A stretch of 64,000 nt of DNA from Bacteroidales bacterium (GCA_035531395.1 DATKTA010000032.1:146033-210032); one strand, 5' to 3'; shown: positions 3,406-64,000, counted from the stretch's first letter. Notes: generated from the sequence alone by a model not told the origin. Numbers and translations are program-made.

Positions 3406-5808
3406 TTATTCCTTTATAAAAACAGGAGTCACTATATCTTCCAGTGCATTCTCATCACCTTTGGCAGGTCCATACCAGACACCTCCTCCAAATGTTATTA
3501 TGAAAATCTTTTCAGGATCTCTGGGATCAGGATCTACCCTTTTGCCCCATTTAAAATTATATCCTCTTATCCGGTTCCATGTTTTGCCATCGTCCTTTGA
3601 ATGGTATGCAGATCCGTTGAATCCGCATGCATAATAAGTGTTATTCCTGTTATCAAATGTAATGTCATGTATATGCTGATCCTTTTCAAGAGTTTGTATC
3701 CATGTCTTGCTATTATCTTCTGACAGGAATATGCCTCCGCCTGTATCCGGAGAGAATTGTCCGGGAGTGCTTTTTCCCCATGCTGACAGCAGAATCCTTT
3801 CAGAATTATCAGCATCAATCACAATACACATTGGACCGTTTGTCCCTTCCGGAAGAGTCATCTTAGTCCATGATTCTGCATTGTCAGACGATCTGTAAAT
3901 TGCACCATCGAGATTATTCCCAATACTTCCGTCATCACTTCGTCTGCAAACAACAAGAAAGAGCTCTCCGTTCCTGAAATTCCTTTCAATTCTCCAGGCA
4001 AATGGTTCCTTACCTTCAATACCTTTATTCTTCTGTATCCATGATTTGCCTCCATCGGTGGATTTATAAACTCCTTTTCCAAATGCACAGGCATATAATG
4101 TACGGGCCTCTTTATTGCTCGCAGGATCAATAAGTATGTGTGTTATGGCCGATTCTCCAATGTCGCTGCTTACAGGATTCCATGTTTTCCCTGCATCTTC
4201 TGTTGAAACTATACCACCTTCATAACCTGATACACTGTTCCTTCTCCACATTTTGGGCCGGGGAAGATCATGAACATTACTCATCACAGCCCAACCTTTC
4301 CCTTTTATATCAGGGTCAAAAGTAAGCCAGTAGGTGCTGTTTATCCATTTACGGGGTATTCCATTGTTAATAGTAGCGCTCATCCAGCTTTCTCCTCCAT
4401 CATTGCTCTCCATCAGTCCGATATCGGTATTAGCAATAAAGAGATGGTTTATGTCAAATGGGTCAAAAACAACTGAGTAGCCTGTGGTTACCTCTAGTCC
4501 CCTTGATATCCAGCCAGCTCCATCTTTCCTGTTGGTATAGAGCTGTTCCCAGGTTTTACCTCCGTCGGAAGTTTTAATCGTCCTTCCAAAATCTGTTGTA
4601 TAACATATTTCAGGATTCTGTGGTGCGACTGCAATTGAAAAAGGATTTTCTCCCCAGGTAGGTCCGAACCTTTCATCAATCCATCCTTTCTTATAATTTG
4701 GAGAATAGAGGTTGCCGCCCTTTGCCAATCTGTCTTTCCAGGGGAGGCTCCATGTTTTGCCAAAATCCTCACTTTTGGCAACTCCGATACAAATTGTATC
4801 ATTTGTTACAATTAATCCTGCATAAGAAACATAGACTACTCCCGGATGATCAGCACTGGTGGCAACCGCTCTCCATTCAGGTAAATCTGCATTATCATGT
4901 CTGAGCTTAAGAATACCATCCTGCCTGTTCTCCCACGTTTTTCCTCCGTCTTCCGAATAATAAATGCCTGATGAATCACCCTCCGGATTAAAGTACGATC
5001 TTCCTGAAATTGCATAAATGATAAACTTATTCAGTCCTTTATCAAATCCCCCTGAAAACTCGTTTATTGTATTAACACCTTCAGGCCCGGGAATTGTGTT
5101 CCATTTTCCGTTTTCTCTTGCAGTTATAGAGTTCTTTCCAGCAAAGTATATAGCGCGGTCTTTTTTTGGAGATGAGGGTGAAATAAAAATGTTTTTAACT
5201 CCGGCCTCAAGATCTTTTTCTTTTATCCAGTGATCTCCCTGGTTATTGGAGGTATAGTAACCAACCCTGTTATCGACTGATATCACAGCATGTAAATTTT
5301 TTGAATTATCCGGATCCACAGCCAGCGCCAGGATACTTTTGTGGATGCTGTCGCTGGTAATTATCCTTTCTTGCGCATGATCGCCTTTTGCAACAATCCC
5401 GTTTATTTCATCAGGCACAGGATAGACGATGTTCCAAGTCTTCCCGCGGTCAGTACTTTTAAACAGGGCAATGGAATTGGCATATACCACATTGGGATCA
5501 ACAGGGTCAAAAACAAAGTACCTGACTGGTCCGCGCAGATTAAACATTCTCCACGACTCTCCTCCATTATATGTCACAAATGATCCGGTCATGTCGCATG
5601 CTACATATACATAATCAGGATCATGAGGACTTATTGACGGCCAGAACATTGCCCCACCTCCACCATAACCAGCAAATCCCCAGGAATCATTTCTTCCATT
5701 TGGATTTTTATCAGTGCCGGAGGAATTTTCCGGCGAGTTGCATCCGTTTATCAGAAGGATTGTAAGAATTAAAAGCATAATTTTTCTACAGACAGATTGT
5801 CGTACCAT
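3406..5808 (-). CDS. BNR/Asp-box repeat protein (double beta-propeller, GH74/sortilin-Vps10-like), lipoprotein
   Basis: At least ten SxDxGxTW Asp-boxes (STDRGKTW, SEDGGKTW, SEDFGKTW, TSDGGKTW, SNDGGESW, TEDAGKTW, STDGGKSW, SSDNAESW, SEDNSKTW, SKDDGKTW). Lipobox LLINGC. Start chosen at the internal Met (MVRQSVC...); the ORF extends to 5838. Confidence 0.85.
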   Translation of the reverse strand: MVRQSVCRKIMLLILTILLINGCNSPENSSGTDKNPNGRNDSWGFAGYGGGGAMFWPSISPHDPDYVYVACDMTGSFVTYNGGESWRMFNLRGPVRYFVFDPVDPNVVYANSIALFKSTDRGKTWNIVYPVPDEINGIVAKGDHAQERIITSDSIHKSILALAVDPDNSKNLHAVISVDNRVGYYTSNNQGDHWIKEKDLEAGVKNIFISPSSPKKDRAIYFAGKNSITARENGKWNTIPGPEGVNTINEFSGGFDKGLNKFIIYAISGRSYFNPEGDSSGIYYSEDGGKTWENRQDGILKLRHDNADLPEWRAVATSADHPGVVYVSYAGLIVTNDTICIGVAKSEDFGKTWSLPWKDRLAKGGNLYSPNYKKGWIDERFGPTWGENPFSIAVAPQNPEICYTTDFGRTIKTSDGGKTWEQLYTNRKDGAGWISRGLEVTTGYSVVFDPFDINHLFIANTDIGLMESNDGGESWMSATINNGIPRKWINSTYWLTFDPDIKGKGWAVMSNVHDLPRPKMWRRNSVSGYEGGIVSTEDAGKTWNPVSSDIGESAITHILIDPASNKEARTLYACAFGKGVYKSTDGGKSWIQKNKGIEGKEPFAWRIERNFRNGELFLVVCRRSDDGSIGNNLDGAIYRSSDNAESWTKMTLPEGTNGPMCIVIDADNSERILLSAWGKSTPGQFSPDTGGGIFLSEDNSKTWIQTLEKDQHIHDITFDNRNNTYYACGFNGSAYHSKDDGKTWNRIRGYNFKWGKRVDPDPRDPEKIFIITFGGGVWYGPAKGDENALEDIVTPVFIKE

Positions 5809-6050
5809 TCTTAATGATTTTTTATGTATTGCCCCCATCGGTCGGGAGGGGAAATACGTCTGAATAATTGAAATAATAGTTATACTTTTTCTGCAAGGTA
5901 ACAGTATCTGACATTACTGAACCGTGATTATTTACATATATTCTCTTTTTGTACTAAATTCAACTGGCATACAATAAATCATTATTTATGAATTATTTCT
6001 GAAAATATATGAAATTTTTTCCATAAAAGACTATTGTTGATCACGCCGGA

Positions 6051-7361
6051 ATGACTAATATTAATGATAAAATAAATGGCATTATGGAAAAGAAGAATGA
6101 AGCAGTTATGAATGCTGCAGGGATAGTTGACCTAGGATTTCCCATGTGGCCTGTTTTTGCTGAAGAGACATTCAAAGATATTCTGGAACCACTGAAAAGC
6201 GGGAAAGTAAATTACTGGACCGGCAAGAAAGGGATGGAATTTGAAGAAAAATGGGCTAAATGGAATGGTGCAAAATATGCAATCTCGTGCACCAATGGTA
6301 CAGCTGCCCTTCATATAGCCGTTTCAAGTCTTGGGATTGGTCCTGGTGATGAGGTGATAGTTCCTTCATATTCATTTATCGCCTCCTCATTTGCTATAGT
6401 TCAGGCCGGAGCAATTCCTGTTTTTTGTGATACAACGGAAGACCATACCATTGATCCTGATCAGATTGAACCACTTATTACAAAGCGTACAAAAGCCATA
6501 ATTGTTGTTCATCTTTATGGGGTCGTTGCCGATATGGGGCCAATACTTAAAATTGCCAGGAAGCATAAACTGAAAGTTATTGAGGATTGTGCCCAGTGCT
6601 TTGGAGGGGAATATAACGGGATTAAAGCAGGAGCAATAGGTGATGCAGGTTGCTTCAGTTTCTGCCAGAGCAAGCATTTTACTACTGGAGGCGAAGGAGG
6701 AATGGTTGTTACAAACAATGAAGATCTTGCCTGGGAGTGCCGTTCTTTTCGCGATCATGGATATGATGTAAAGGAGAGGCTAAACATGTTGGCTCTTGAG
6801 GAGAAGCTACCCTATATCCACAACAGGGTTGGTTTCAACTTCAGGATGACCGAGATACAATCTGTTATTGGACTGAACGAACTTAAGAGGCTCGACACCT
6901 GGAATCTTAAGAGACGTTTTAAATATGCTTCAATGTATGACAGGGCTTTTAAGAACCTGAAGGGAGTGAAGAAACTACCCGTAAATACTGCTGAAAGGAA
7001 AAATGCATACTGGTGGTACCCGATAGTGCTTGATACAGAGATGATTGACATTGACGCAGCCGGGATGATCAAAGAACTCCATGATCAAAATATTCCCTGC
7101 TATGGTATCCAGTGGCCTGAAGCCTATCTTGAGAAAGCTTACAGGGGACACAATGGCTTTGGTGCAAACAAATTCCCTTTCAGATCTGAAGAATATACAG
7201 ATAAGAAAAGTGTTAATTACGATAAGGTATTATGTAAAACTGCCAGTTCCTTAAGGAAAAGGACTATCTCCCTTTTCCTTCATCCTTCGTGGGAGGAAAA
7301 GCATATTCAGAGGTGTATTGATGTATTTTCCGTTACCTGTGAAAAGCATCTTAAGAAGTAG
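6051..7361 (+). CDS. DegT/DnrJ/EryC1/StrS-family PLP-dependent sugar aminotransferase
   Basis: Family-typical blocks: CTNGTAALHIAVSSLGIGPGDEVIVPSYSF, AIPVFCDT, TKAIIVVHLYG, VIEDCAQCFGGEY, and FSFCQSKHFTTGGEGGMVVTN (PLP lysine). No signal peptide. The start could also be an internal Met at 6084 or 6108. Confidence 0.9.
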   Translation: MTNINDKINGIMEKKNEAVMNAAGIVDLGFPMWPVFAEETFKDILEPLKSGKVNYWTGKKGMEFEEKWAKWNGAKYAISCTNGTAALHIAVSSLGIGPGDEVIVPSYSFIASSFAIVQAGAIPVFCDTTEDHTIDPDQIEPLITKRTKAIIVVHLYGVVADMGPILKIARKHKLKVIEDCAQCFGGEYNGIKAGAIGDAGCFSFCQSKHFTTGGEGGMVVTNNEDLAWECRSFRDHGYDVKERLNMLALEEKLPYIHNRVGFNFRMTEIQSVIGLNELKRLDTWNLKRRFKYASMYDRAFKNLKGVKKLPVNTAERKNAYWWYPIVLDTEMIDIDAAGMIKELHDQNIPCYGIQWPEAYLEKAYRGHNGFGANKFPFRSEEYTDKKSVNYDKVLCKTASSLRKRTISLFLHPSWEEKHIQRCIDVFSVTCEKHLKK

Positions 7362-54332: not shown

Positions 54333-55082
54333 ATGAAAATTCTGGTTTGCATAAGTAATGTTCCCGATACGACGACAAAAATTAAATTTGCTGAGGGAAA
54401 TACTTCAATTGACACCACGGGTATTCAATGGGTAATCAATCCATGGGACGAGCTTTCACTTACACGTGCCCTTGAGCTAAAGGATGATGCCTCAAGCGGG
54501 ATTAAGTCCGTTACCGTTGTTCATGTTGGTCCGGCTACTTCAGAACCGACAATCCGGAAGGCGCTTGCAATTGGGGCTGACGATGCCGTGAGGGTAAATT
54601 CTGAATCTCTCGATGCCTATTATACTGCTGCCCAGATTGCCGAGGTGGTTAAGAAGGAGCAGTTCGATATAATATTCTGCGGTATTGAATCAAGCGACTT
54701 TAATGGTTCAACAGTGGGAGGGATGGTTGCTGAATTTCTAAACATACCTTCAGTTTCTGCAGTATCTGGTATTGTAGTGGAAAACGGAAGGCCGGTGCTT
54801 ACTCGTGAGATTGACGGAGGAAAAGAGACAGTCACTGTTACTGCTCCTTTTGTAGCGATTGTTCAGAAAGGAATTGCCAAAGAGCCACGGATTGCCGCAA
54901 TGCGTGGGATAATGATGGCAAGGACAAAGCCTGTCAAGCTATTTGAGCCTGTTGCCATTGAGCCTCTTACTCAGGTTCAGGAGTTTGAGAAGCCTACCCC
55001 AAGGGCAGCCTGCAAATTTATCGATGCTGAGAATCCCCGCCAGCTTATCGAACTTTTACAGAACGAGGCAAAAGTTATTTGA
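54333..55082 (+). CDS. etfB: Electron transfer flavoprotein beta subunit
   Basis: MKILVCISNVPDTTTKIKF, INPWDELSLTRALELK and FDIIFCG blocks. Confidence 0.95.
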   Translation: MKILVCISNVPDTTTKIKFAEGNTSIDTTGIQWVINPWDELSLTRALELKDDASSGIKSVTVVHVGPATSEPTIRKALAIGADDAVRVNSESLDAYYTAAQIAEVVKKEQFDIIFCGIESSDFNGSTVGGMVAEFLNIPSVSAVSGIVVENGRPVLTREIDGGKETVTVTAPFVAIVQKGIAKEPRIAAMRGIMMARTKPVKLFEPVAIEPLTQVQEFEKPTPRAACKFIDAENPRQLIELLQNEAKVI

Positions 55083-55112
55083 TTTTGGTCGGAAACAATA
55101 AAAAGCAATAAT

Positions 55113-56081
55113 ATGTCAGTATTAGTATATACAGAGAATTGGGACGGAAAATTTAAAAAGCTGTCTTTTGAACTTGTATCATATGCAGCAGGTGTTGCAA
55201 AAATGACCGGTAATTCAGTCACTGCAGTATCAGTCGGCAAGGTTGATGAATCAGAGCTTAAAAAGCTAGGTGATTATGGGGCATCAAAGGTAATAAGTGT
55301 TAGCAGCGATAATCTAACTGTCCTAGATAGCCAGGCCTATACAAGCGTAATTGCCGATGTTGCCTCAAAAGAGAGATCAAAAGTAATTGTGATCGCCAAT
55401 AACAATACAGGTAAGGCAATTGCACCGAGGCTTTCAGTGCGGCTCAGGGCAGGAGTGGGCTCAGGCGTGAGCAAGCTCCCTGTAAATCTCAATCCGTTTA
55501 CAGTTTACAAAAGAACTTATTCGGGAAATGCTTTTGCACATCTCGTCATTAAATCAGACGTCAAAATACTTACTCTGGCGCAGAACTCGTTTGATCTCGT
55601 TACTTCTCAGAATGCAGCAGTGATTGAAAATGTTTCAGTATCAATTGACGGATCACTTGTAAAAACTGTGGTAACCAATGTCGAAAAGCAGACCGGGAAA
55701 ATGCTTCTGACCGATGCAGATATAGTTGTTTCAGGAGGAAGGGGAATGAAGTCACCCGATAACTGGGGCCCGCTGGTTGAACTTGCTGATCTGCTGGGAG
55801 GAGCAACTGCTTGTTCAAGACCTGTTTCGGATGAGGGTTGGAGACCTCATGGTGAACATACCGGACAGACAGGGAAGATAATTGCTCCGAATCTTTATGT
55901 GGCAGTTGGTATTTCCGGAGCTACACAGCATCTGGCAGGGATCAGCTCTTCAAAATATATTGTTGCCATCAACTCCGATAAGGATGCACCTATTTTCGAA
56001 GTGGCTCAATATGGAATAGTTGGCGATGCAATGAGAATATTACCGAAGCTTGTTGAGGCAGTAAAGGATATTAAGAGATAG
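55113..56081 (+). CDS. etfA: Electron transfer flavoprotein alpha subunit
   Basis: The C-terminal FAD-binding region has [43 protein letters not shown] and [13 protein letters not shown]. Confidence 0.95.
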
Positions 56082-56086
56082 TAATA

Positions 56087-56133
56087 GGCTCAACGGTTCA
56101 ACGGCTCAACGGTTCAACGGCTCAACGGTTCAG
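56087..56133. repeat. 16-nt tandem repeat GGCTCAACGGTTCAAC x3 (8-nt CAACGGYT x6)
   Basis: ggctcaacggttcaac at 56087-56102 and 56103-56118, then ggctcaacggttcag at 56119-56133, starting 6 nt after the etfA stop. Confidence 0.9.
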
Positions 56134-56154
56134 AGAAACTAAGAATAGGATTTT

Positions 56155-56185
56155 GGCTCCCCTCCCAGGAAGGGTTGGGGGTGAG
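56155..56185. repeat. Second, inverted and diverged copy of the CTCACCCC...GGGAGGGG REP family
   Basis: The reverse complement ctcacccccaacccttcctgggaggggag resembles cctcaccccaaacccctctcccaggggagagggga at 29478 onwards. Confidence 0.55.
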
Positions 56186-56204
56186 TTAAAATAATACTTA
56201 ATTT

Positions 56205-57524
56205 ATGATTAAACAGATTGTTTTCGCAATAACCTTACTGATTACCCTGGGGATTTTTGTCTATACGGTCAGAAGGCTCATTAGCTTTTTCAGATTCACA
56301 CGGCCGGCATTTCCTGTGAGGGATTTTGGTAAGAGGATCATCGTCACACTCGAAGTTGCCATGGGCCAGACCAAAATCTTCCGCAAACCTGTACTGGGCT
56401 TTGCTCATGCCCTTGTATTCTGGGGTTTCTGCGTGATACTTATAGGCAGTATTGAAATGGTAATAGATGGATTGACAGGAACTGAAAAAGTATTAAAAGT
56501 ACTTGGGCCGGTTTATGACTTCCTGATGGCAACCGGAGATATTTTTGCTCTTATTATCGCTGTTGCAATAATTATTTTTCTTATCCGCCGCATCTTCTTT
56601 CATATAAAGCGCTTTGAGGGGATAGAGATGAAGAAAAAGTCTCACCTGGATGCAAACATCTCACTCACCCTGATACTGCTTCTGATGGTTTCACTCCTGG
56701 CGATGAATATTGGATATGTTGGAAATATTTTAAGTGAAGGAGGTACTGCAGAGGGAGTCTATCCTGTTGCAGCTGTGTTCTTACCCCTGTTTGGAGGAAT
56801 GAGTGCGCATAGTCTGAATATCGTGTTTGAAGCATCGAGGTGGACCCATATTCTCCTGATCTTCTTCTTCGCAAACTATCTTCCTTACTCAAAGCATTTT
56901 CATGTATTTATGTCGGTACCGAATGTTTTCCTCTCAAGGCTCGAACCGCTTGGAAAACTTCCCAATATGGATAGTGTTACCAGGGAGGTAAAGCTCATGA
57001 TGGATCCATCAACTGCATTTGCAGCGGCTCCCGAAGGGGCTCCGATAGAAAGGTTTGGTGTAAAGGATGCAGAAGATGCTTCATGGAAAAACTATTTCGA
57101 TTCATTGTCCTGCACAGAATGTGGGCGCTGCACATCTGTCTGCCCTGCAAATATTACAGGCAAAAAATTGTCGCCCAGAAAGATAATGATGGATCTCCGT
57201 GCCAGGATGAAAGAGAAGGGCCCTCTTATGGTTAAAAACGGAAGGGACTTCAGTGATAACCGGTCACTTCTGAGAGATTTTATTTCGGAAGAGGAATTAT
57301 GGGCATGTACCACATGCAATGCATGTGCTAAGGAGTGCCCGATTAACATTAATCATCCTACATTTATAGTAGATATGCGCAGGTATCTTGTAATGGAGGA
57401 AGCTTCAGCTCCCGGTGAGCTGAAGGCAGTCTTCAATAATATCGAGAATAACGGTGCTCCCTGGCAGTATTCAGCTGAAGACAGACTGAACTGGGCTAAA
57501 GACCTGGAGATTAATGTGATATAA
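56205..57524 (+). CDS. Membrane-anchored Fe-S oxidoreductase, N-terminal part of an EtfD/HdrED-like unit (TM domain plus 2x[4Fe-4S] ferredoxin motifs)
   Basis: About 6 TM helices with conserved His (FAHALVFWG, YSKHFHVF), then CTECGRCTSVCP and CTTCNACAKECP. Confidence 0.8.
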   Translation: MIKQIVFAITLLITLGIFVYTVRRLISFFRFTRPAFPVRDFGKRIIVTLEVAMGQTKIFRKPVLGFAHALVFWGFCVILIGSIEMVIDGLTGTEKVLKVLGPVYDFLMATGDIFALIIAVAIIIFLIRRIFFHIKRFEGIEMKKKSHLDANISLTLILLLMVSLLAMNIGYVGNILSEGGTAEGVYPVAAVFLPLFGGMSAHSLNIVFEASRWTHILLIFFFANYLPYSKHFHVFMSVPNVFLSRLEPLGKLPNMDSVTREVKLMMDPSTAFAAAPEGAPIERFGVKDAEDASWKNYFDSLSCTECGRCTSVCPANITGKKLSPRKIMMDLRARMKEKGPLMVKNGRDFSDNRSLLRDFISEEELWACTTCNACAKECPININHPTFIVDMRRYLVMEEASAPGELKAVFNNIENNGAPWQYSAEDRLNWAKDLEINVI

Positions 57525-57556
57525 TCTCTATGTAACTCTAAAGGAATGAACTAATT

Positions 57557-58351
57557 ATGGAAACCCGCAAAATTGAAATACCTGTAATGGCTGACCTTTT
57601 TGCCAGGGGTGAAAAACCAGAATACCTTTTCTGGGTTGGCTGCGCAGGAGCTTTTGATGACAGGTATAAGAAGGTTGTTCGTGCTTTTGCAAAGATACTT
57701 GCCCATCTGAATGTGAGTTATGCTGTACTTGGAAAAGAGGAGACCTGTACAGGAGATCCTGCAAGAAGGGCCGGGAATGAGATGTTATACCAGATGCAGG
57801 CTATGCAGGTTATCGAAATCCTTAAAATGTACGAGGTCAGGAAGATAATTACAATATGTCCTCATTGCTTCAATATATTCAAAAATGAATATCCCGATCT
57901 GGGAGGAAATTATGAAGTTATAAATTATCTGCAGTTCATAAATAATAATATTAAAGAGGGCAGGTTAAATATTGATAAGGAGTCACTTAGAGATATCACT
58001 GTCACATATCACGATCCTTGCTATCTTGGAAGAGCCAATGATATTTATGATGAACCTCGCGCCATTCTTAAGAAGCTGACAGGAGCCCTTGTGGAGATGG
58101 AAAGGAGCAAAAGCTTTGCCCTTTGTTGCGGTGCCGGAGGTGCCCAGATGTTCAAGGAGGCAGAAAAAGGGGATAAGGAGATATTTATCGAGCGGACTGA
58201 GGAGGCACTGAAGACAGATGCAAAAGTAATTGCAACAGCATGTCCTTTCTGCATGACCATGCTGACCGACGGGCTGAAATACAAGAACAGGGAAGAAGAA
58301 ATAAAGAACTTTGATTTAGCTGAACTTATAGTCCAATCACTTGAATTATAG
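57557..58351 (+). CDS. Cysteine-rich CCG-domain protein (HdrD/GlpC C-terminal-like), partner of the preceding gene
   Basis: FWVGCAGAF, CPHCFN, DPCYLGR, LCCGAGG and ACPFCMTM. It lies 32 nt after the preceding gene. Confidence 0.8.
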   Translation: METRKIEIPVMADLFARGEKPEYLFWVGCAGAFDDRYKKVVRAFAKILAHLNVSYAVLGKEETCTGDPARRAGNEMLYQMQAMQVIEILKMYEVRKIITICPHCFNIFKNEYPDLGGNYEVINYLQFINNNIKEGRLNIDKESLRDITVTYHDPCYLGRANDIYDEPRAILKKLTGALVEMERSKSFALCCGAGGAQMFKEAEKGDKEIFIERTEEALKTDAKVIATACPFCMTMLTDGLKYKNREEEIKNFDLAELIVQSLEL

Positions 58352-58378
58352 ATTAATCCAAATAATTATCTGATTAAA

Positions 58379-60157
58379 ATGGAAAATGACAAACTTTTAA
58401 AAAGCGGTGAATTTCTTGTAAGTGAAATTGATTCAAGAAGTGTTTTCATTCCCGAGGAATTCAATGAGGAACAGAAGATGATAGCTCAGACCTGCAGCGA
58501 TTTTCTTGAAGCTGAAGTTTACCCTAACCTCGATCAGGTTGAGAAAGGCGACAGGGAACTCATGAAGTCTATGCTTAAAAAGTCAGGTGATCTTGGATTG
58601 ATGGGGATATCAATACCTGAGGAGTTTGGAGGATTCGGCCAGTCATTTGTTACACAGATGCTCGTAGCTGAAACGACAGGCGCCGGTTGTTCATTCTCAG
58701 TGGCATACATGGCTCATTGCGGTATCGGAACCCTTCCTATTATGTATTATGGTAATAAGGACCAGCGTGAGCGGTATGTAACAAAGCTTACTACAGGTGA
58801 ATACCTCGGAGCATATTGCCTTACTGAACCAGGTGCCGGAAGCGATGCTAACTCGGGCAAGACAAATGCAAAACTCAGCGAAGATGGTAAACACTATATC
58901 CTCAATGGACAGAAAATGTGGATCACAAATGCCGGATTTGCTGATACGCTTGTTGTGTTTGCTAAAATAGATGCTGACAGGGTGCTCAGTGCATTCATTG
59001 TTGAAACAAAATATCCTGGTGTTGTGATAGGTCCCGATGAGCATAAAATGGGAATCAAGGGATCATCAACTGCTCAGATCTACTTTAACGATGTAAAGGT
59101 TCCTGTTGAAAATCTGCTTGGTAAGAGGGGAGGGGGCTTCAGGATAGCTCTCAGCATTCTTCATATGGGTCGTCTCAAGCTTGGTGCTAATGTAATTGGT
59201 GCAGCAAAAAAAGCCATTACCGACTCAGTTAAATATGCAAATGAAAGAAAACAGTTCGGACTCCTTATATCTTCATTCGGTGCTCTCAAATATAAAATGG
59301 CTGAACAGGTAATACGTTTATTTGCTTCTGAAGCAGCGGTATACAGGGTAAGTAATGATGTGGATAGTCTGATGAAGAAGATGACAATCGACTGCGGCGA
59401 TTACGGAAGAGCTTCCATTGAATCGATAAGCCACTACGCAGTCGAAGCTGCCATTCTCAAGGTTGTTGGGTCAGAGATGCTTGATTTTGTTGCAGATGAG
59501 GCAGTACAGATACATGGTGGAATGGGATATTCTGCTGAAATGGCTGTTGAAAGGGGATATCGCGACTCAAGGATAAACAGGATATTTGAAGGTACTAATG
59601 AGATAAACCGTCTTCTTGTCGTTGATACAGCAATGAAACGCGCAATGAAGGGCGATTTTGACCTTTTCGGAGAGGCAGAAAAGCTATGGGCAAATCTTAA
59701 TGAAGTGACAGTACCACGAAAGGATGGAGAGAGCTATTTTGAAGAGAAATACAGGTATATCAAAAACTTTAAAAAAGCTATACTGATTTGTATCAATGGT
59801 GCCAGCAAGACATTCCAGAAGAATCTTGTTAATGAACAGGAGGTTCTTAATAACATAGCCGATATGATGATGGAAACATATGTTACTGAATCACTTGCTC
59901 TGAGGATAGAGAAAATGTCAGCCATGAAGAGCGATGTTTCACTTTACAAGGACATGCTTGATGTAAATATCTCAGAGACAGCTCATCTTATTCGTAAGTC
60001 AGCTCTCGACGCGATATGCACATTCTGCACAATAGAGTCATGCCCATCGCTTATGAAGGCAATAGATGATCTTACAAAAGTATCATGTGTCAATATAAAG
60101 GATGCCAGGAGAAGGATTGCAGATAAGCTTATTGCAGATAATTGTTATAATTTCTGA
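58379..60157 (+). CDS. Acyl-CoA dehydrogenase (long, about 590-aa form)
   Basis: YCLTEPGAGSDA, MWITNAGFAD, QIHGGMGY and IFEGTNEINR blocks. Confidence 0.9.
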   Translation: MENDKLLKSGEFLVSEIDSRSVFIPEEFNEEQKMIAQTCSDFLEAEVYPNLDQVEKGDRELMKSMLKKSGDLGLMGISIPEEFGGFGQSFVTQMLVAETTGAGCSFSVAYMAHCGIGTLPIMYYGNKDQRERYVTKLTTGEYLGAYCLTEPGAGSDANSGKTNAKLSEDGKHYILNGQKMWITNAGFADTLVVFAKIDADRVLSAFIVETKYPGVVIGPDEHKMGIKGSSTAQIYFNDVKVPVENLLGKRGGGFRIALSILHMGRLKLGANVIGAAKKAITDSVKYANERKQFGLLISSFGALKYKMAEQVIRLFASEAAVYRVSNDVDSLMKKMTIDCGDYGRASIESISHYAVEAAILKVVGSEMLDFVADEAVQIHGGMGYSAEMAVERGYRDSRINRIFEGTNEINRLLVVDTAMKRAMKGDFDLFGEAEKLWANLNEVTVPRKDGESYFEEKYRYIKNFKKAILICINGASKTFQKNLVNEQEVLNNIADMMMETYVTESLALRIEKMSAMKSDVSLYKDMLDVNISETAHLIRKSALDAICTFCTIESCPSLMKAIDDLTKVSCVNIKDARRRIADKLIADNCYNF

Positions 60158-60222
60158 TAGTAATCAATCCAGGGCCTGTAAATGAGGGGAAGGGTTGACA
60201 AAAATTTTACAATTCCATTTAT

Positions 60223-60230
60223 TATCTTTG
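60223..60230 (+). promoter_or_regulatory. Bacteroidota -7 promoter box (TAnnTTTG) upstream of the M48 protease gene
   Basis: tatctttg at 60223-60230, 34 nt upstream of ATG 60264. Confidence 0.4.
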
Positions 60231-60263
60231 TACCATCCATTCAAAGTACTTAAATCTGATTAT

Positions 60264-61073
60264 ATGAAAAGGCTACTTAAGGTTTTTCTTTCACTGTATT
60301 TAATTGTAATTCTGCTTGATGCATGCACAACAGTTCCTCTAACAGGCCGCAGGCAGCTTAGTCTGGTGCCTGAATCTGATATGATATCAATGTCATTCAA
60401 CAACTATTCAGAGTTTATGAAAACTAATCCTGTTTCAACCGATAAGGCTAATGTTGCATTTGTTCAGTCAGTAGGAAGGGATATCTCAGAAGCTGTGATC
60501 AAATATTTTGCCGACAATAATCTTTCATCAAGACTCAGCGGTTACCAGTGGGAATTTAACCTTGTAAAAAATGATTCTACTCCTAATGCATGGTGCATGC
60601 CAGGTGGCAAAGTTGTAGTTTACAGCGGTATTCTTCCTTATACCAGGGATAAGAATGGTCTGGCTGTTGTTGTTAGTCATGAGATTGCGCATGCAGTGGC
60701 TCGTCATGGAAATGAGCGCATGAGTCAGGAAATGCTGGCACAGTTTGGAGGAGTTGTTCTTAGTGAAGCGATCAAGGAAAAGCCTGAACAGACAAAAGCC
60801 ATCTTTGGATCAGCGTACGGATTGGGAGCACAGTATGGCATGATGCTTCCCTTTTCACGGGAGCATGAACTTGAAGCAGACAAACTTGGACTAATTTTCA
60901 TGGCAATGGCCGGGTATGATCCCCATACAGCGATCGAATTCTGGGAAAGGATGGGTGCCATGGGAGGGCAGAAGCCCCCTGAGTTCATGAGTACACATCC
61001 GTCAGATGCAACACGCATACAGAAGATAAAGGAAGCCTTGCCCGAGGTTATGACATATTCTAAAAAGCAGTAA
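60264..61073 (+). CDS. M48-family zinc metalloprotease lipoprotein
   Basis: Lipobox LLDAC. HEIAHAVARH (HExxH). Downstream EHELEADKLG. The track ORF from 60195 is an upstream extension. Confidence 0.85.
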   Translation: MKRLLKVFLSLYLIVILLDACTTVPLTGRRQLSLVPESDMISMSFNNYSEFMKTNPVSTDKANVAFVQSVGRDISEAVIKYFADNNLSSRLSGYQWEFNLVKNDSTPNAWCMPGGKVVVYSGILPYTRDKNGLAVVVSHEIAHAVARHGNERMSQEMLAQFGGVVLSEAIKEKPEQTKAIFGSAYGLGAQYGMMLPFSREHELEADKLGLIFMAMAGYDPHTAIEFWERMGAMGGQKPPEFMSTHPSDATRIQKIKEALPEVMTYSKKQ

Positions 61074-61218
61074 TTCTCTTCCATTCTCACCTATTTTTTG
61101 TGAATATATGTTAATATCAATCTAAGGGTTGATATTTGTCAATTTTACTAATGTTAAAGAGCATGGTATAATTTGGAATTTATACTGTTGTATGGTTTTG
61201 TTGTCGGGATAAAAAAAA

Positions 61219-61226
61219 TATCTTTG
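61219..61226 (+). promoter_or_regulatory. Bacteroidota -7 promoter box (TAnnTTTG) upstream of the cytochrome cluster
   Basis: tatctttg at 61219-61226, 37 nt upstream of ATG 61263. Confidence 0.4.
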
Positions 61227-61262
61227 TGAAAAAAATAACAATATATTTTAATCCTGAAACAG

Positions 61263-61655
61263 ATGACAAAAATATTGAGGAATCTATTATTATTTGTGAG
61301 CATTGTTGTAGGAGTAGTATATTTCTCCGCCTGTGAAAAATATACCTTCCGTGTTGAAACATTGCCTCCGGCAGATACAGGAGGGTCAGATACTACCAAT
61401 TATGTATCCTTCAGTACTGAAGTTCAACTGGTTTTTAATGCTAAATGCGTATCCTGCCATAAGGGAACCAGAAATCCTGACCTTCGTGAAGGGAATTCTT
61501 ATCAATCACTGACTGATGGCGGTTATGTAACTTCACCGGCTTCTGACAGCAAGTTGTATAAAAAGTTGATTTCAAGCAGCCATTCATCAATTACAACCCA
61601 GGCTAACAAGAATACTATCTATTTATGGATAAGCCAGGGTGCAAAGAACAATTAG
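61263..61655 (+). CDS. Small lipoprotein monohaem c-type cytochrome (PSCyt1-like domain)
   Basis: Lipobox YFSAC. CVSCH at 61446-61460, in the context VQLVFNAKCVSCHKG...LTDGGYV...SKLYKKL. Confidence 0.75.
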   Translation: MTKILRNLLLFVSIVVGVVYFSACEKYTFRVETLPPADTGGSDTTNYVSFSTEVQLVFNAKCVSCHKGTRNPDLREGNSYQSLTDGGYVTSPASDSKLYKKLISSSHSSITTQANKNTIYLWISQGAKNN

Positions 61656-61685
61656 AAATAATCAAACCTGATAATACCAAAGAAC

Positions 61686-62546
61686 ATGAAAAAGATCTTT
61701 ATCATCCTTACATTATCATTAATTCTGGCACCGGTCTTTGCACAGGAAGAAGCTGCTGGCCCAGAAGCTGTAACTAATACTTTTAATACTGCCACTCTTA
61801 TTGATAATCAAACAGTTGCATCACCATACAAAGGTGGACTTGAACTACAGATACACCATAGGTTCAGCCTGATAGAAAACGTGAAGAATCTTTACGGTAT
61901 TTACGGAGCTGCAAATACAAGGCTTGGTCTGAACTATGGAATTACCGACAGGATTATGATAGGAGCAGGAACTACAAAGGATTACAAGCTTCAGGACATC
62001 CAGTGGAAGTATGCCATACTTCAACAGACAACAGATAACAGCATGCCTGTTTCACTTTCCTATTACGGGAACATGGTAATTGATGCAAGAGCTGATGAAA
62101 ATTTCGGACCTGAAGCCAGTTACAAATTTATTCATAGGATATCTTATTTTACCCAGCTTATTATAGCGAGGAAATTCAGTGAGAAATTATCATTGCAGGT
62201 AGCTCCTTCAGCATTCTATTTCAACTCTGTACCAGAATATTCTGACACAACAGGGTATAAGAATTTTAATCTTGGAATTCATGCAGGAGGCCGCTATAAT
62301 ATTGTGGGCAATCATTGCCTGATGCTTGAGTATGACCAACTCCTGATTAAGCAGGATCTTTCAGACGATGATCATCCTAAGCCAAATGTCACTTTGGGTT
62401 GGGAGATAAATACTCCGACACATGCTTTCCAGCTGTTTGTGGCAAACTATTCAAGTATTATAAATCAGTATAATTTACTTTATAACCAGAATGACCTTAC
62501 AGATAAGAAATTTCTTGTAGGCTTTAATATTACCGTACGGTTCTAA
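61686..62546 (+). CDS. Small outer-membrane beta-barrel protein (DUF5777-like)
   Basis: Signal peptide ending PVFAQ. Alternating hydrophobic/polar strand pattern with aromatic girdles. C-terminal GFNITVRF (terminal Phe beta-signal). Confidence 0.65.
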   Translation: MKKIFIILTLSLILAPVFAQEEAAGPEAVTNTFNTATLIDNQTVASPYKGGLELQIHHRFSLIENVKNLYGIYGAANTRLGLNYGITDRIMIGAGTTKDYKLQDIQWKYAILQQTTDNSMPVSLSYYGNMVIDARADENFGPEASYKFIHRISYFTQLIIARKFSEKLSLQVAPSAFYFNSVPEYSDTTGYKNFNLGIHAGGRYNIVGNHCLMLEYDQLLIKQDLSDDDHPKPNVTLGWEINTPTHAFQLFVANYSSIINQYNLLYNQNDLTDKKFLVGFNITVRF

Positions 62547-62564
62547 CCGAATAATAGTCCGGGA

Positions 62565-63539
62565 ATGAAGTTATTTATTTTAAGGATATCGGTCCTGCTT
62601 TTTATCATTTCTCTAATTTCAGCAAAAGCCGCGGGGGGTTTTAAGTTACAGACTGTTACTGACAGTCAGGATACAGCTGTTTTTGTCTCTCCCTATGAGG
62701 AGGAAAATCAGCAGTGCTTCAAATGTCACGGTCAGTCGAAGTATAGCTATATGAACGAGTCTCTCGGACGTGAGGTTAAAGCAATGATGTTTGTGGAAAG
62801 GATTATAAAAAAGAAGGACTTTTATAGGTCAAATCACAAAAGCTTCAGCTGTACAGATTGTCATTCATCAGAATATGCTAATTTCCCGCATCCGGGTGAA
62901 CTAAGGATGGAAGCGAAGCTGAACTGCATCGATTGTCATGGAGGTGATGAGACTTATCATTTTGATGCCATTACTGAGGAGTACCAGCAGAGTATTCACT
63001 TCAAACTTGAGAATGAGGGATTTTCATGCTATGGATGTCATAATCCTCATACCTACAGGATTAGCACCAGGACAAGTCATAACCTTAAAGAGACGATAGC
63101 ATATGATAATGCAATCTGTCTTGGATGCCATTCTGACTTCAACCGGTTCGAGCTTCTGACAGACCGGGAAGAAATAAATATTATCAGCAAGCATGAATGG
63201 CTTCCCAACCAGTCTTTACATATGGCAAATGTAAGGTGCATTGAATGTCATACAAAGATAAATGAGAATCTGCCTGTTGCACATCTTATAAAGCCAAAGA
63301 CCGAAGCTGTGAAGCGATGTAATGAATGCCATTCACAGAACTCGATGCTGATGGCTTCACTCTATAAGTTTGAATCCAAAGAACAGCGTAAGGATGGATT
63401 CTTTAACGGAATAATTCTTAACCAGTCCTACGTGATAGGAGCCAATAGAAATGAATATCTTAATCTGCTGAGCCTTATCATATTCGGTGGAATTATTATA
63501 GTTGTCCTGGTTCATATATATTTCAGAATTAATAAATAA
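62565..63539 (+). CDS. Heptahaem c-type cytochrome with C-terminal membrane anchor
   Basis: Signal peptide. Seven CxxCH motifs at residues 51, 96, 121, 155, 185, 225 and 252 (CFKCH, CTDCH, CIDCH, CYGCH, CLGCH, CIECH, CNECH). C-terminal TM helix LNLLSLIIFGGIIIVVLVHIYF. Confidence 0.9.
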   Translation: MKLFILRISVLLFIISLISAKAAGGFKLQTVTDSQDTAVFVSPYEEENQQCFKCHGQSKYSYMNESLGREVKAMMFVERIIKKKDFYRSNHKSFSCTDCHSSEYANFPHPGELRMEAKLNCIDCHGGDETYHFDAITEEYQQSIHFKLENEGFSCYGCHNPHTYRISTRTSHNLKETIAYDNAICLGCHSDFNRFELLTDREEINIISKHEWLPNQSLHMANVRCIECHTKINENLPVAHLIKPKTEAVKRCNECHSQNSMLMASLYKFESKEQRKDGFFNGIILNQSYVIGANRNEYLNLLSLIIFGGIIIVVLVHIYFRINK

Positions 63540-63560
63540 TAATATTTCAAAAGACTCAAA

Positions 63561-64000
63561 ATGTATCTTTACCCAAAATGGATCAGACTATGGCATGTCC
63601 TGAATGCAATCCTGTTCATCATACTTATAATTACTGGATTAAGCATGCAATATACCGGCGAGAAGGATTATGTTCTTGTGGTAGGATTTGAAGATGCTGT
63701 AAGGTGGCATAATACTTCGGCTATTATTTTGACTGTGAATTATATAATTTTTGTAGCAGGTAACCTTATTACAAGAAATGGAAGATATTATAATTTGAAG
63801 AGGGAAAACTTCTTTGCTGATCTTTTCAAGCAGTTGAGATACTATTCATGGGGAATGTTCCATGGTGAGAAGCACCCTTTCCCTATTACAATGGAAAGAA
63901 AGTTTAACCCGTTGCAGAAGGTTTCTTATGTTCTTGCAATGTATGTGGCACTGCCTCTTGTGATTATTTCAGGAATTGGCTTGCTGTTGCCTGAGATAGT
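63561..64000 (+). CDS. Membrane b-type cytochrome (HydC/FdnI/PhsC-like), 3' end beyond the window
   Basis: My own translation from ATG 63561: MYLYPKWIRLWHVLNAILFIILIITGLSMQY...VRWHNTSAIILTVNYIIF...KVSYVLAMYVALPLVIISG. It has TM helices with conserved His and is open to the window end. It is absent from the ORF track because it has no stop. Confidence 0.75.
   Translation, partial: MYLYPKWIRLWHVLNAILFIILIITGLSMQYTGEKDYVLVVGFEDAVRWHNTSAIILTVNYIIFVAGNLITRNGRYYNLKRENFFADLFKQLRYYSWGMFHGEKHPFPITMERKFNPLQKVSYVLAMYVALPLVIISGIGLLLPEI

Follow-up and report, generated by a model that had tools for sequence, protein, structure and literature searches.

The stretch analyzed here (the window) is 64,000 nt of DNA from a Bacteroidales bacterium (GCA_035531395.1 DATKTA010000032.1:146033-210032), and this report concerns the four genes at positions 61219-64000, the promoter-proximal four of the seven genes that make up an operon in an uncultured Bacteroidales bacterium. 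The four lie on the plus strand with spacers of 30, 18 and 21 nt. They encode a monohaem lipoprotein of 130 amino acids (aa) with a lipobox and a CVSCH motif, called LIPO below (61263..61655); a 286-aa protein with a signal peptide and the C-terminal sequence ITVRF, ending in Phe, that belongs to the Pfam family DUF5777 (PF19089; 61686..62546); a 324-aa CbcA-like heptahaem cytochrome c with a signal peptide, seven CxxCH motifs, matches to multihaem Pfam families and a C-terminal transmembrane (TM) anchor (62565..63539); and a CbcB-like dihaem cytochrome b of the Ni_hydr_CYTB family, of which the N-terminal 146 of 210 aa are encoded within the window (63561..64000, the start codon being at 63561 and not 63562). 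A preliminary description of the window had listed four genes on one strand with 18-30 nt spacers, a signal-peptide barrel ending in ITVRF and a seven-CxxCH protein with a C-terminal TM segment among them, and all of the features it described were present; the four domain calls, DUF5777 included, were upheld by Pfam and NCBIfam searches. Because every one of these genes has many homologues conserved in the same order in other genomes, we judge all four to be real.

The operon was followed past the window end on a Joint Genome Institute contig (L001), which shares the last 3928 nt of the window with 0 mismatches and extends 9.5 kb further. It contains seven co-directional genes with spacers of 11-59 nt, followed by terminator-like hairpins. 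The preliminary description had allowed that a terminal reductase might lie beyond position 64000; no catalytic subunit was present on this identical contig, and no molybdopterin, NrfA-type or sirohaem subunit was found within 9.5 kb downstream or 1 kb upstream. The three genes 3' of the cytochrome b gene (L001 4181-7077) encode an iron-sulfur (FeS) protein with 4x[4Fe-4S] exported by the twin-arginine translocation (Tat) pathway, an ActC-like NrfD protein and a 196-aa protein. The FeS protein had its top NCBIfam match to DsrO (190.5 bits, cut-off 200) and its top match in the PDB to PsrB (2vpw_B), and it also matched NrfC and TtrB, the latter with 142 bits against a cut-off of 416. The NrfD protein has 10 TM segments, and its nearest solved relative is ActC of alternative complex III (6f0k_C, E = 3e-54; 6btm_C, E = 7e-52). 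The 196-aa protein is bitopic, with hydrophobic segments at its N and C termini, and matched no family and no PDB entry. It is strongly supported that these three proteins form a second quinone-interacting module, and, since the trio was found in only 3 of 82 related loci, that this module is accessory. It looks like a 'mini-ACIII/Cbc4-like' module (ACIII, alternative complex III) joined to a cbcAB operon.

The heptahaem protein has its CxxCH motifs at residues 51, 96, 121, 155, 185, 225 and 252 and its TM segment at residues 296-314. The cytochrome b, which had been described as HydC/FdnI/PhsC-like and as running off the window, matched Ni_hydr_CYTB (E = 5e-18) and the PhsC-type NCBIfam model NF011582, with 131 bits for the 146 aa in the window and 168 bits (cut-off 204) for the full-length 210-aa protein from L001. 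Four His residues are invariant in the b domain, the first two encoded in the window and the other two in L001, and the family is annotated as 'thiosulfate reductase cytochrome b-like'. The nearest known system for this pair is CbcBA of Geobacter sulfurreducens (part of Cbc5, GSU0593-0594), an inner-membrane bc quinol oxidoreductase that works near -0.21 V. In Geobacter, CbcA has seven haems and a C-terminal anchor and is encoded beside cbcB, whose product is a dihaem b cytochrome that is usually annotated 'thiosulfate reductase-like' (Joshi et al. 2021). The two systems have in common the seven-haem periplasmic c protein with its C-terminal TM helix, the adjacent dihaem b gene with that annotation, and the gene order c then b, and they probably belong to one sequence family. 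They differ in the regulator, which is of the Crp/FNR type here and the sigma-54 regulator BccR in Geobacter (no sigma-54 activator was found in the locus, where the conserved neighbor is the Crp/FNR-type gene), and in the downstream partner, which is FeS plus ActC-like NrfD here and the dodecahaem CbcC in Geobacter. The best PDB match of the heptahaem protein was weak (28pb_A, 'Cytochrome c', 278 aa, E = 1e-7). A search with the 28pb_A fragment returned four partial relatives, none of them from G. sulfurreducens, that adjoin BccR-like sigma-54 response regulators and Ni_hydr_CYTB genes on Desulfuromonadaceae-type contigs; the window proteins matched these relatives with E = 5e-7 for the c protein and 4e-15 for the b fragment. 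LIPO and DUF5777 were not found in two such contigs, both of which are short or frameshifted, and GSU0597 and GSU3489 are called hypothetical in the Geobacter papers. Assignment of the pair to the CbcA/CbcB family of inner-membrane menaquinol:cytochrome c oxidoreductases is strongly supported, the link to the Geobacter protein itself being indirect. The parts had been called unrelated to those of Geobacter, which is not supported for this pair, and cbcBA homologues had already been reported in Caldithrix and in Bacteroidetes (Prolixibacter, Marinilabiliales, Labilibaculum), as had cbcB-cbcA fusions (Joshi et al. 2021).

The 146-aa in-window part of the cytochrome b was used to query 1.84 billion representative sequences, and its relatives there fell into no more than 514 clusters (50% identity). 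Among the 150 best of these, roughly one in two was a fusion of 500-890 aa with exactly seven CxxCH motifs N-terminal to the b domain (P0133, P0136, P0140, P0143 and about 70 other representatives); a few fusions had 10 haems, and in some the b domain came first and was followed by 6 haems (P0150, 734 aa). A genome scan anchored on the cytochrome b (alignment of nine sequences) gave a best 80 loci from Magnetococcales, Calditrichota, Kapabacteria, Ignavibacteria, Chloroherpeton, Bryobacterales, Chromatiales, Marinilabiliales and Bacteroidales, none of them from Geobacter, and a census was taken over 82 loci. In 80 of the 82, a range that includes Acidobacteriota and Chlorobiota, the gene immediately 5' of the b gene encodes a C-terminally anchored heptahaem cytochrome (13-haem in one clade); the remaining two loci are on truncated contigs. 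The taxa agree with those that Joshi et al. (2021) named.

The census used open reading frames and hidden Markov models (HMMs) and was stable on iteration. Homologues of LIPO and of DUF5777 occurred in the identical set of 23 loci and in none of the others. All 23 are of Bacteroidia type (Carboxylicivirga, Saccharicrinis, Lentimicrobium, Marinilabiliales and many Bacteroidales metagenome-assembled genomes, or MAGs), and in every one the two genes are adjacent, LIPO first, on the strand of cbcAB and upstream of cbcA. When loci were picked from the DUF5777 side, three of three had the same cluster, at 33-45% identity to the window protein, so that the co-occurrence of the four genes in related genomes held in 23/23 and 3/3 loci. 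Since the genes co-occur in relatives and no reductase catalytic subunit lies downstream, the idea of a candidate trans-envelope module stands. The conserved Bacteroidia cluster reads: divergent Crp/FNR gene, hexahaem lipoprotein, LIPO, DUF5777, a class I monohaem cytochrome of about 138 aa (c138, in 15 loci), CbcA, CbcB and a variable tail. The window operon is a variant that has gained the FeS/ActC-like/196-aa trio and has the hexahaem lipoprotein homologue and the Crp/FNR gene just downstream instead of at the start of the cluster. A profile search with DUF5777 returned 2830 proteins, and the top 120 were all single-domain proteins of 273-316 aa, those with names being all from Bacteroidales or Bacteroidetes; the term 'DUF5777' was not met in a literature search. 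LIPO-DUF5777 is an undescribed, lineage-specific pairing, putatively of the outer membrane, that is widespread in Bacteroidia, the CbcAB half of the cluster having been noted in Bacteroidetes before.

The slot that is occupied by LIPO (130 aa) and DUF5777 (290 aa) in Bacteroidia is held by one fused protein of about 420 aa in a second set of loci (class II), which come from Ignavibacteria, Kapabacteria, Chloroherpeton (Chlorobi) and some mis-labelled MAGs. The class II layout consists of a hexahaem collagen-tethered lipoprotein, the 420-aa Cyc2-like protein, a Tat Rieske lipoprotein, a class I monohaem cytochrome, a 13-haem CbcA-like protein and CbcB, as exemplified by an Ignavibacteria MAG (L028 5016-10756). 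The 420-aa protein has a signal peptide, an N-terminal CxxCH, a barrel-like remainder and an aromatic end residue, and its sequence ARPQYSILQ, five residues before the CxxCH, has the spacing of the Cyc2 motif without the FAR residues. It matched no Pfam or NCBIfam family. Homology with DUF5777 or LIPO was considered and rejected, as hhalign gave 2% for the barrels and a match of only 13 columns, at the haem motif. Because a fused, non-homologous unit of one haem plus barrel fills the same slot, LIPO and DUF5777 may act jointly as the outer-membrane step, and of the evidence for such a joint role this non-orthologous replacement, although indirect, is the strongest. The class II layout was also seen in L011, L021, L030, L032, L034, L038, L044, L045, L049, L050 and L054, and the cluster may be an undescribed iron or extracellular electron transfer (EET) module of Ignavibacteria, Kapabacteria and Chloroherpeton.

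The DUF5777 match covers the full length of the Pfam profile (positions 1-247 of 247, E = 5e-69, 232.7 bits, cut-off 23.1). AlphaFold2, run with an alignment of 150 sequences, predicted a 12-stranded barrel with a predicted local distance difference test (pLDDT) value of 88.7 and a predicted template modelling score (pTM) of 0.84, and Foldseek placed it among small outer-membrane barrels of 12-14 strands (NanC, FapF, the COG4313 channel, Tsx and OmpG) at template modelling scores of about 0.4-0.54. DUF5777 is therefore predicted to be an outer-membrane beta-barrel. The most conserved part of the family is an N-terminal segment, residues 28-43. As modelled, the barrel has too little room to enclose a multihaem protein, a point that the preliminary description had made from its length of 286 aa and that the predicted strand count of 12 bears out.

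LIPO has a lipobox ending in VYFSAC, with an invariant lipid Cys24, and its one CVSCH (61446-61460), which was found as previously described, lies at residues 62-66 in a PSCyt1-like context. Weak matches were obtained to the NCBIfam model LIC11213_lipo (35 bits, below cut-off) and to Cytochrome_CBB3. We considered whether LIPO might be ActE of ACIII or a known class I cytochrome, and neither was borne out by a significant PDB or Pfam match. The 22 distinct orthologues share the N terminus C-[DEQ]-Y-[KE]-[FY]-[IV]-x-P after lipidation and the haem context SFS.E..PIF...C..CH.G. The haem motif is kept in all 22, as CxxCH or, in two, as CX4CH, and about 40 residues past it one position is His in most and Met in three, making this residue a candidate sixth haem ligand. 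Both CX4CH proteins (L068 7138-7548, CNMSGCH; L069 7154-7546, CNTSGCH) have Met at the putative ligand position. Two LIPO variants were also seen (L061 7351-7983 and L079 2-637), one made of two tandem LIPO domains (210 aa, 2 haems) and the other carrying an extra N-terminal domain of about 90 aa.

The hexahaem lipoprotein that neighbors the window operon has 416 aa, with five CxxCH motifs and one CX5CH, and is encoded convergently, on the minus strand, at L001 7563-8813 (about 7.5 kb past the window end). Homologues were found in 30 loci, with E = 1e-18 to 3e-95 between the window neighbor and the others. These lipoproteins start with C-T-K-E-G-P or C-E-G-P and continue with 20-30 residues of collagen-like, Gly-Pro-rich G-x-x sequence; a flexible tether of this kind, following immediately on the lipid Cys, is unusual in a cytochrome. 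Assignment to NrfA, Otr or MtrC was rejected, the domain matches being faint and a PDB match lacking. The HMM of LIPO also matched the hexahaem lipoprotein of L085 (frame +1, about 5400-6500, E = 1.8e-8), and a module at the N terminus or around the haem may be common to both lipoprotein cytochromes. The Crp/FNR regulator gene that adjoins the cluster (L001 9017-9712) precedes a gene for a fused ResB-CcsA protein of 1021 aa (L001 9859-12924), which belongs to System II of cytochrome c biogenesis.

Taken together, these data led us to propose that the operon specifies a respiratory chain for electron export or exchange, in which CbcAB is combined with an outer-membrane module of LIPO and DUF5777, a proposal that we regard as evenly balanced between right and wrong. 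CbcB would take electrons from menaquinol, as, in this organism, would the ActC-like/FeS module, and the seven haems of the membrane-anchored CbcA would pass them into the periplasm; these steps are proposed because of family membership and of the genetics and biochemistry of the Geobacter proteins. The conserved gene context suggests that LIPO, which would dock on the DUF5777 barrel or cap it at the inner face of the outer membrane, would then receive electrons at its haem, that the pair would relay between periplasmic cytochromes and the collagen-tethered hexahaem lipoprotein, and that this lipoprotein, or a solute in the barrel lumen, would meet the final acceptor, for example Fe(III), humics or an electrode. 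Because the barrel is too narrow for a multihaem protein, any conduit through DUF5777 would be of the Cyc2 type, a single haem being located at the pore or inside it, and would not be MtrAB-like. The adjacent ResB-CcsA maturation gene and the Crp/FNR regulator were counted as supporting context. The trans-envelope electron-transfer module of the preliminary description is therefore well supported at its inner-membrane step, and its outer-membrane step is drawn from gene context only. A more specific version, which we put forward tentatively and think somewhat more apt to fail than to hold, is that LIPO and DUF5777 are a minimal two-component porin-cytochrome, convergent with Cyc2, which together with a surface hexahaem lipoprotein and CbcAB makes up a dedicated EET route in many Bacteroidia (Bacteroidales and Marinilabiliales that inhabit sediments, digesters and bioelectrochemical reactors).

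Several observations weigh against such a chain. In a third architecture, found in Magnetococcales, Calditrichota, Bryobacterales and one Bacteroidetes MAG, cbcAB is followed by an anchored octahaem protein and there is no barrel; this protein is distantly related to the Otr tetrathionate reductase family (TIGR04315, 76 bits, cut-off 375), which suggests that CbcAB feeds a periplasmic enzyme in those phyla. CbcAB is thus a modular quinol dehydrogenase and by itself no proof of EET, and, since its partner in other phyla is an Otr-like octahaem protein, it is not a safe EET marker alone. (The octahaem protein is about 720 aa and TM-anchored in the Magnetococcales locus L003, 10653-12818, and was also seen in L009, L051, L078 and other class I loci.) K-(D/E)2, the canonical signal for surface export in Bacteroidetes, is absent from both LIPO and the hexahaem lipoprotein, and exposure of the latter at the surface is therefore unproven. 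One haem without help cannot bridge the outer membrane, the conserved N-terminal segment of DUF5777 may plug its own barrel as in its structural neighbors FapF and COG4313, and the c138 cytochrome, which 15 related loci have, is missing from the window operon. A new crystal structure of CbcA is cited in a 2026 review, and that 28pb_A is G. sulfurreducens CbcA we infer from this review and from the gene neighbors of its relatives, the name of the entry being silent on the point.

Four other readings were weighed against an export or exchange chain. The barrel might be a solute channel through which a small redox-active acceptor (for example chelated Fe(III), a quinone or humic analogue, or an S or N oxyanion) enters to be reduced in the periplasm by lipoprotein cytochromes fed by CbcAB, with no protein route across the outer membrane. 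The nearest folds, which are the specific solute channels NanC, Tsx, COG4313, OmpG and the KdgM-type VhGalP, favor this reading, as do the impossibility of fitting a cytochrome within 12 strands, the missing export signal of both lipoproteins, the service of CbcAB to an Otr-like periplasmic protein in other phyla, and the fact that Cyc2, too, is thought to act on dissolved iron entering its pore. We nevertheless think it unlikely, although well worth keeping in mind: the haem lipoprotein and the barrel are adjacent at a strict 1:1 ratio in 26 of 26 loci and have a fused cytochrome-porin-like replacement in class II loci, both of which suggest a complex, while the long collagen-like tether is hard to explain for a purely periplasmic enzyme and the hexahaem protein matched no known enzyme family. 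In another reading, LIPO and DUF5777 would be accessory proteins and not electron carriers of the chain, serving for example the assembly, anchoring or export of the hexahaem lipoprotein, whose linker would be threaded through the barrel, or the handling of haem or iron. RcsF is known to thread through OmpA/C/F in this manner, the structural neighbors of DUF5777 include 12-stranded translocators and autotransporter barrels (FapF, EstA, AaaA), the hexahaem lipoprotein has an extended linker of 25-30 residues right after its lipid Cys, and the conserved C-x-Y-x-F-I-x-P N terminus of LIPO suggests a docking strand. An accessory pair seems improbable all the same, as the retention of the haem motif and the candidate sixth ligand in 22 of 22 LIPO proteins, including the CX4CH/Met switch, argues for a working cytochrome, and the class II analogue carries a haem too.

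The direction of flow might also be inward, with the outer-membrane module oxidizing extracellular or dissolved Fe(II) or another reduced donor, such as a cathode or a partner cell, and CbcAB or the ActC-like module reducing menaquinone, or with some other sink. Geobacter CbcBA oxidizes quinol at very low potential, the midpoint of CbcA being -279 mV, the context of the host MAG is fermentative with beta-oxidation and has no autotrophy or oxidase genes nearby, and PxFAR[Q/K][T/Y], which defines Cyc2, is absent from both LIPO and the class II protein. These points make an inward chain hard to credit, even though porin-cytochrome systems are often bidirectional (PMC8258643), the protein in the corresponding position in Ignavibacteria, Kapabacteria and Chloroherpeton resembles Cyc2, whose design is proven for Fe(II) oxidases, and the class II loci add a Rieske protein together with a class I cytochrome c, both of them typical carriers of higher potential. 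We give still less credence to the possibility that the b, FeS and NrfD proteins are the PhsC/PsrBC/NrfCD-type anchor of an ordinary periplasmic reductase (of thiosulfate, polysulfide, tetrathionate, nitrite or sulfite) with its catalytic subunit encoded elsewhere. The top score of the cytochrome b is to PhsC, the FeS protein matches DsrO, TtrB, NrfC and PsrB, and the NrfD protein lies within the PsrC/NrfD superfamily, but the scores fall under the curated cut-offs (168 vs 204, 190 vs 200 and 84 vs 350) and the NrfD protein is nearest to ActC. Besides the absence from L001 of the catalytic subunits named above, the FeS and NrfD genes are missing from about 95% of related loci, in which LIPO, DUF5777 and cbcAB persist.

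The electron-export or electron-exchange chain that we favor was compared with known systems for crossing the envelope. Like Cyc2 (Keffer et al. 2021), LIPO-DUF5777 combines one c haem with a small outer-membrane barrel and is far below the size of the Mtr and Pcc complexes. Cyc2, however, is a single polypeptide of at least 365 aa with 16 strands, whereas here two genes encode proteins of 130 and 286 aa with 12 predicted strands; the Cyc2 motif AxPxFAR[Q/K][T/Y], five residues before the CxxCH, is absent from LIPO; hhalign showed no homology of the barrels (2% probability); and LIPO-DUF5777 is coupled to a quinol oxidase of the low-potential CbcAB type, Cyc2 to an oxidase chain. With MtrCAB, PioAB and Geobacter PccABC (OmbB-OmaB-OmcB) the cluster shares the logic of an inner-membrane quinol oxidase, periplasmic cytochromes, a barrel and a multihaem lipoprotein in one cluster, but no component is homologous, and barrels of the MtrAB/Pcc type have 20-26 strands around an 8-10-haem protein, compared with 12 strands and a one-haem partner here. 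The trio resembles the periplasmic FeS and NrfD quinone-site subunits of ACIII (ActABCDEF), DsrMKJOP/Hmc and Geobacter Cbc4 (CbcSTU), the FeS protein being like the B2 part of ActB, and the set of c, b, FeS and NrfD proteins parallels DsrJ/M/O/P and HmcA/E/B/C. Differences are the lack here of ActA, ActB1, ActE and ActF and of a DsrK/HdrD-like subunit, a cytochrome b of the FdnI/PhsC type and not of the NarI type, and scores below the equivalog cut-offs. The Phs, Psr and Ttr oxyanion reductases have a molybdopterin subunit, which L001 lacks, and the anchor proteins here score below their equivalog cut-offs as well.

Bacteroidia are among the most abundant anaerobes of sediments, digesters, guts and electrode biofilms, yet to our knowledge they have no defined electron conduit in the outer membrane. 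In this locus and its relatives, the genetically validated CbcBA is tied to a conserved, lineage-specific outer-membrane pair that includes a domain of unknown function. If the proposal is right, the pair would add a third architecture to the two, Mtr/Pcc and Cyc2, by which the outer membrane is crossed, and the combination of hexahaem lipoprotein, LIPO, DUF5777 and cbcAB would be a marker set for metal, humic or electrode respiration in Bacteroidia metagenomes. As cultured carriers exist (Carboxylicivirga, Saccharicrinis), it is directly testable. In a previous report, an anode-enriched MAG, 'Bacteroidetes_1', was found to contain a seven-gene cluster in which several c cytochromes accompany a single b cytochrome and a single predicted barrel (Ouboter et al. 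2021; PMC8258643), and this was proposed as a new EET cluster, with no DUF5777 or CbcBA assignment and no comparative analysis. Compared by its description, it is probably the same kind of locus, and it lends independent support to an outer-membrane redox role.

The genes upstream of the cluster (window 54333-61073) encode EtfB and EtfA of an electron-transfer flavoprotein (ETF), a membrane FeS protein and a separate CCG-domain protein (together a split EtfD/HdrD-like pair), an acyl-CoA dehydrogenase of 592 aa and a lipoprotein of the M48 peptidase family. The preliminary description had placed the cytochrome genes just downstream of an ETF/EtfD-like/acyl-CoA dehydrogenase operon; these genes are real, but the linkage was seen only here and in one near-identical contig, and the operon was rejected as a conserved partner of the cytochrome cluster because the neighborhood is not conserved among the loci. 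The -7 box that had been proposed for the operon, TATCTTTG, is present on the plus strand at 61219..61226, 37 nt 5' of the first ATG, and corresponds to L001 1147-1154. Its motif is no more frequent than chance, a pattern search of the 13.5-kb locus giving 16 matches versus 13.7 expected, so that it is no evidence by itself. With a TTTG 18 nt upstream of it on the same strand (61197-61200), TATCTTTG is a possible Bacteroidetes -7 box and compatible with a promoter of that group.

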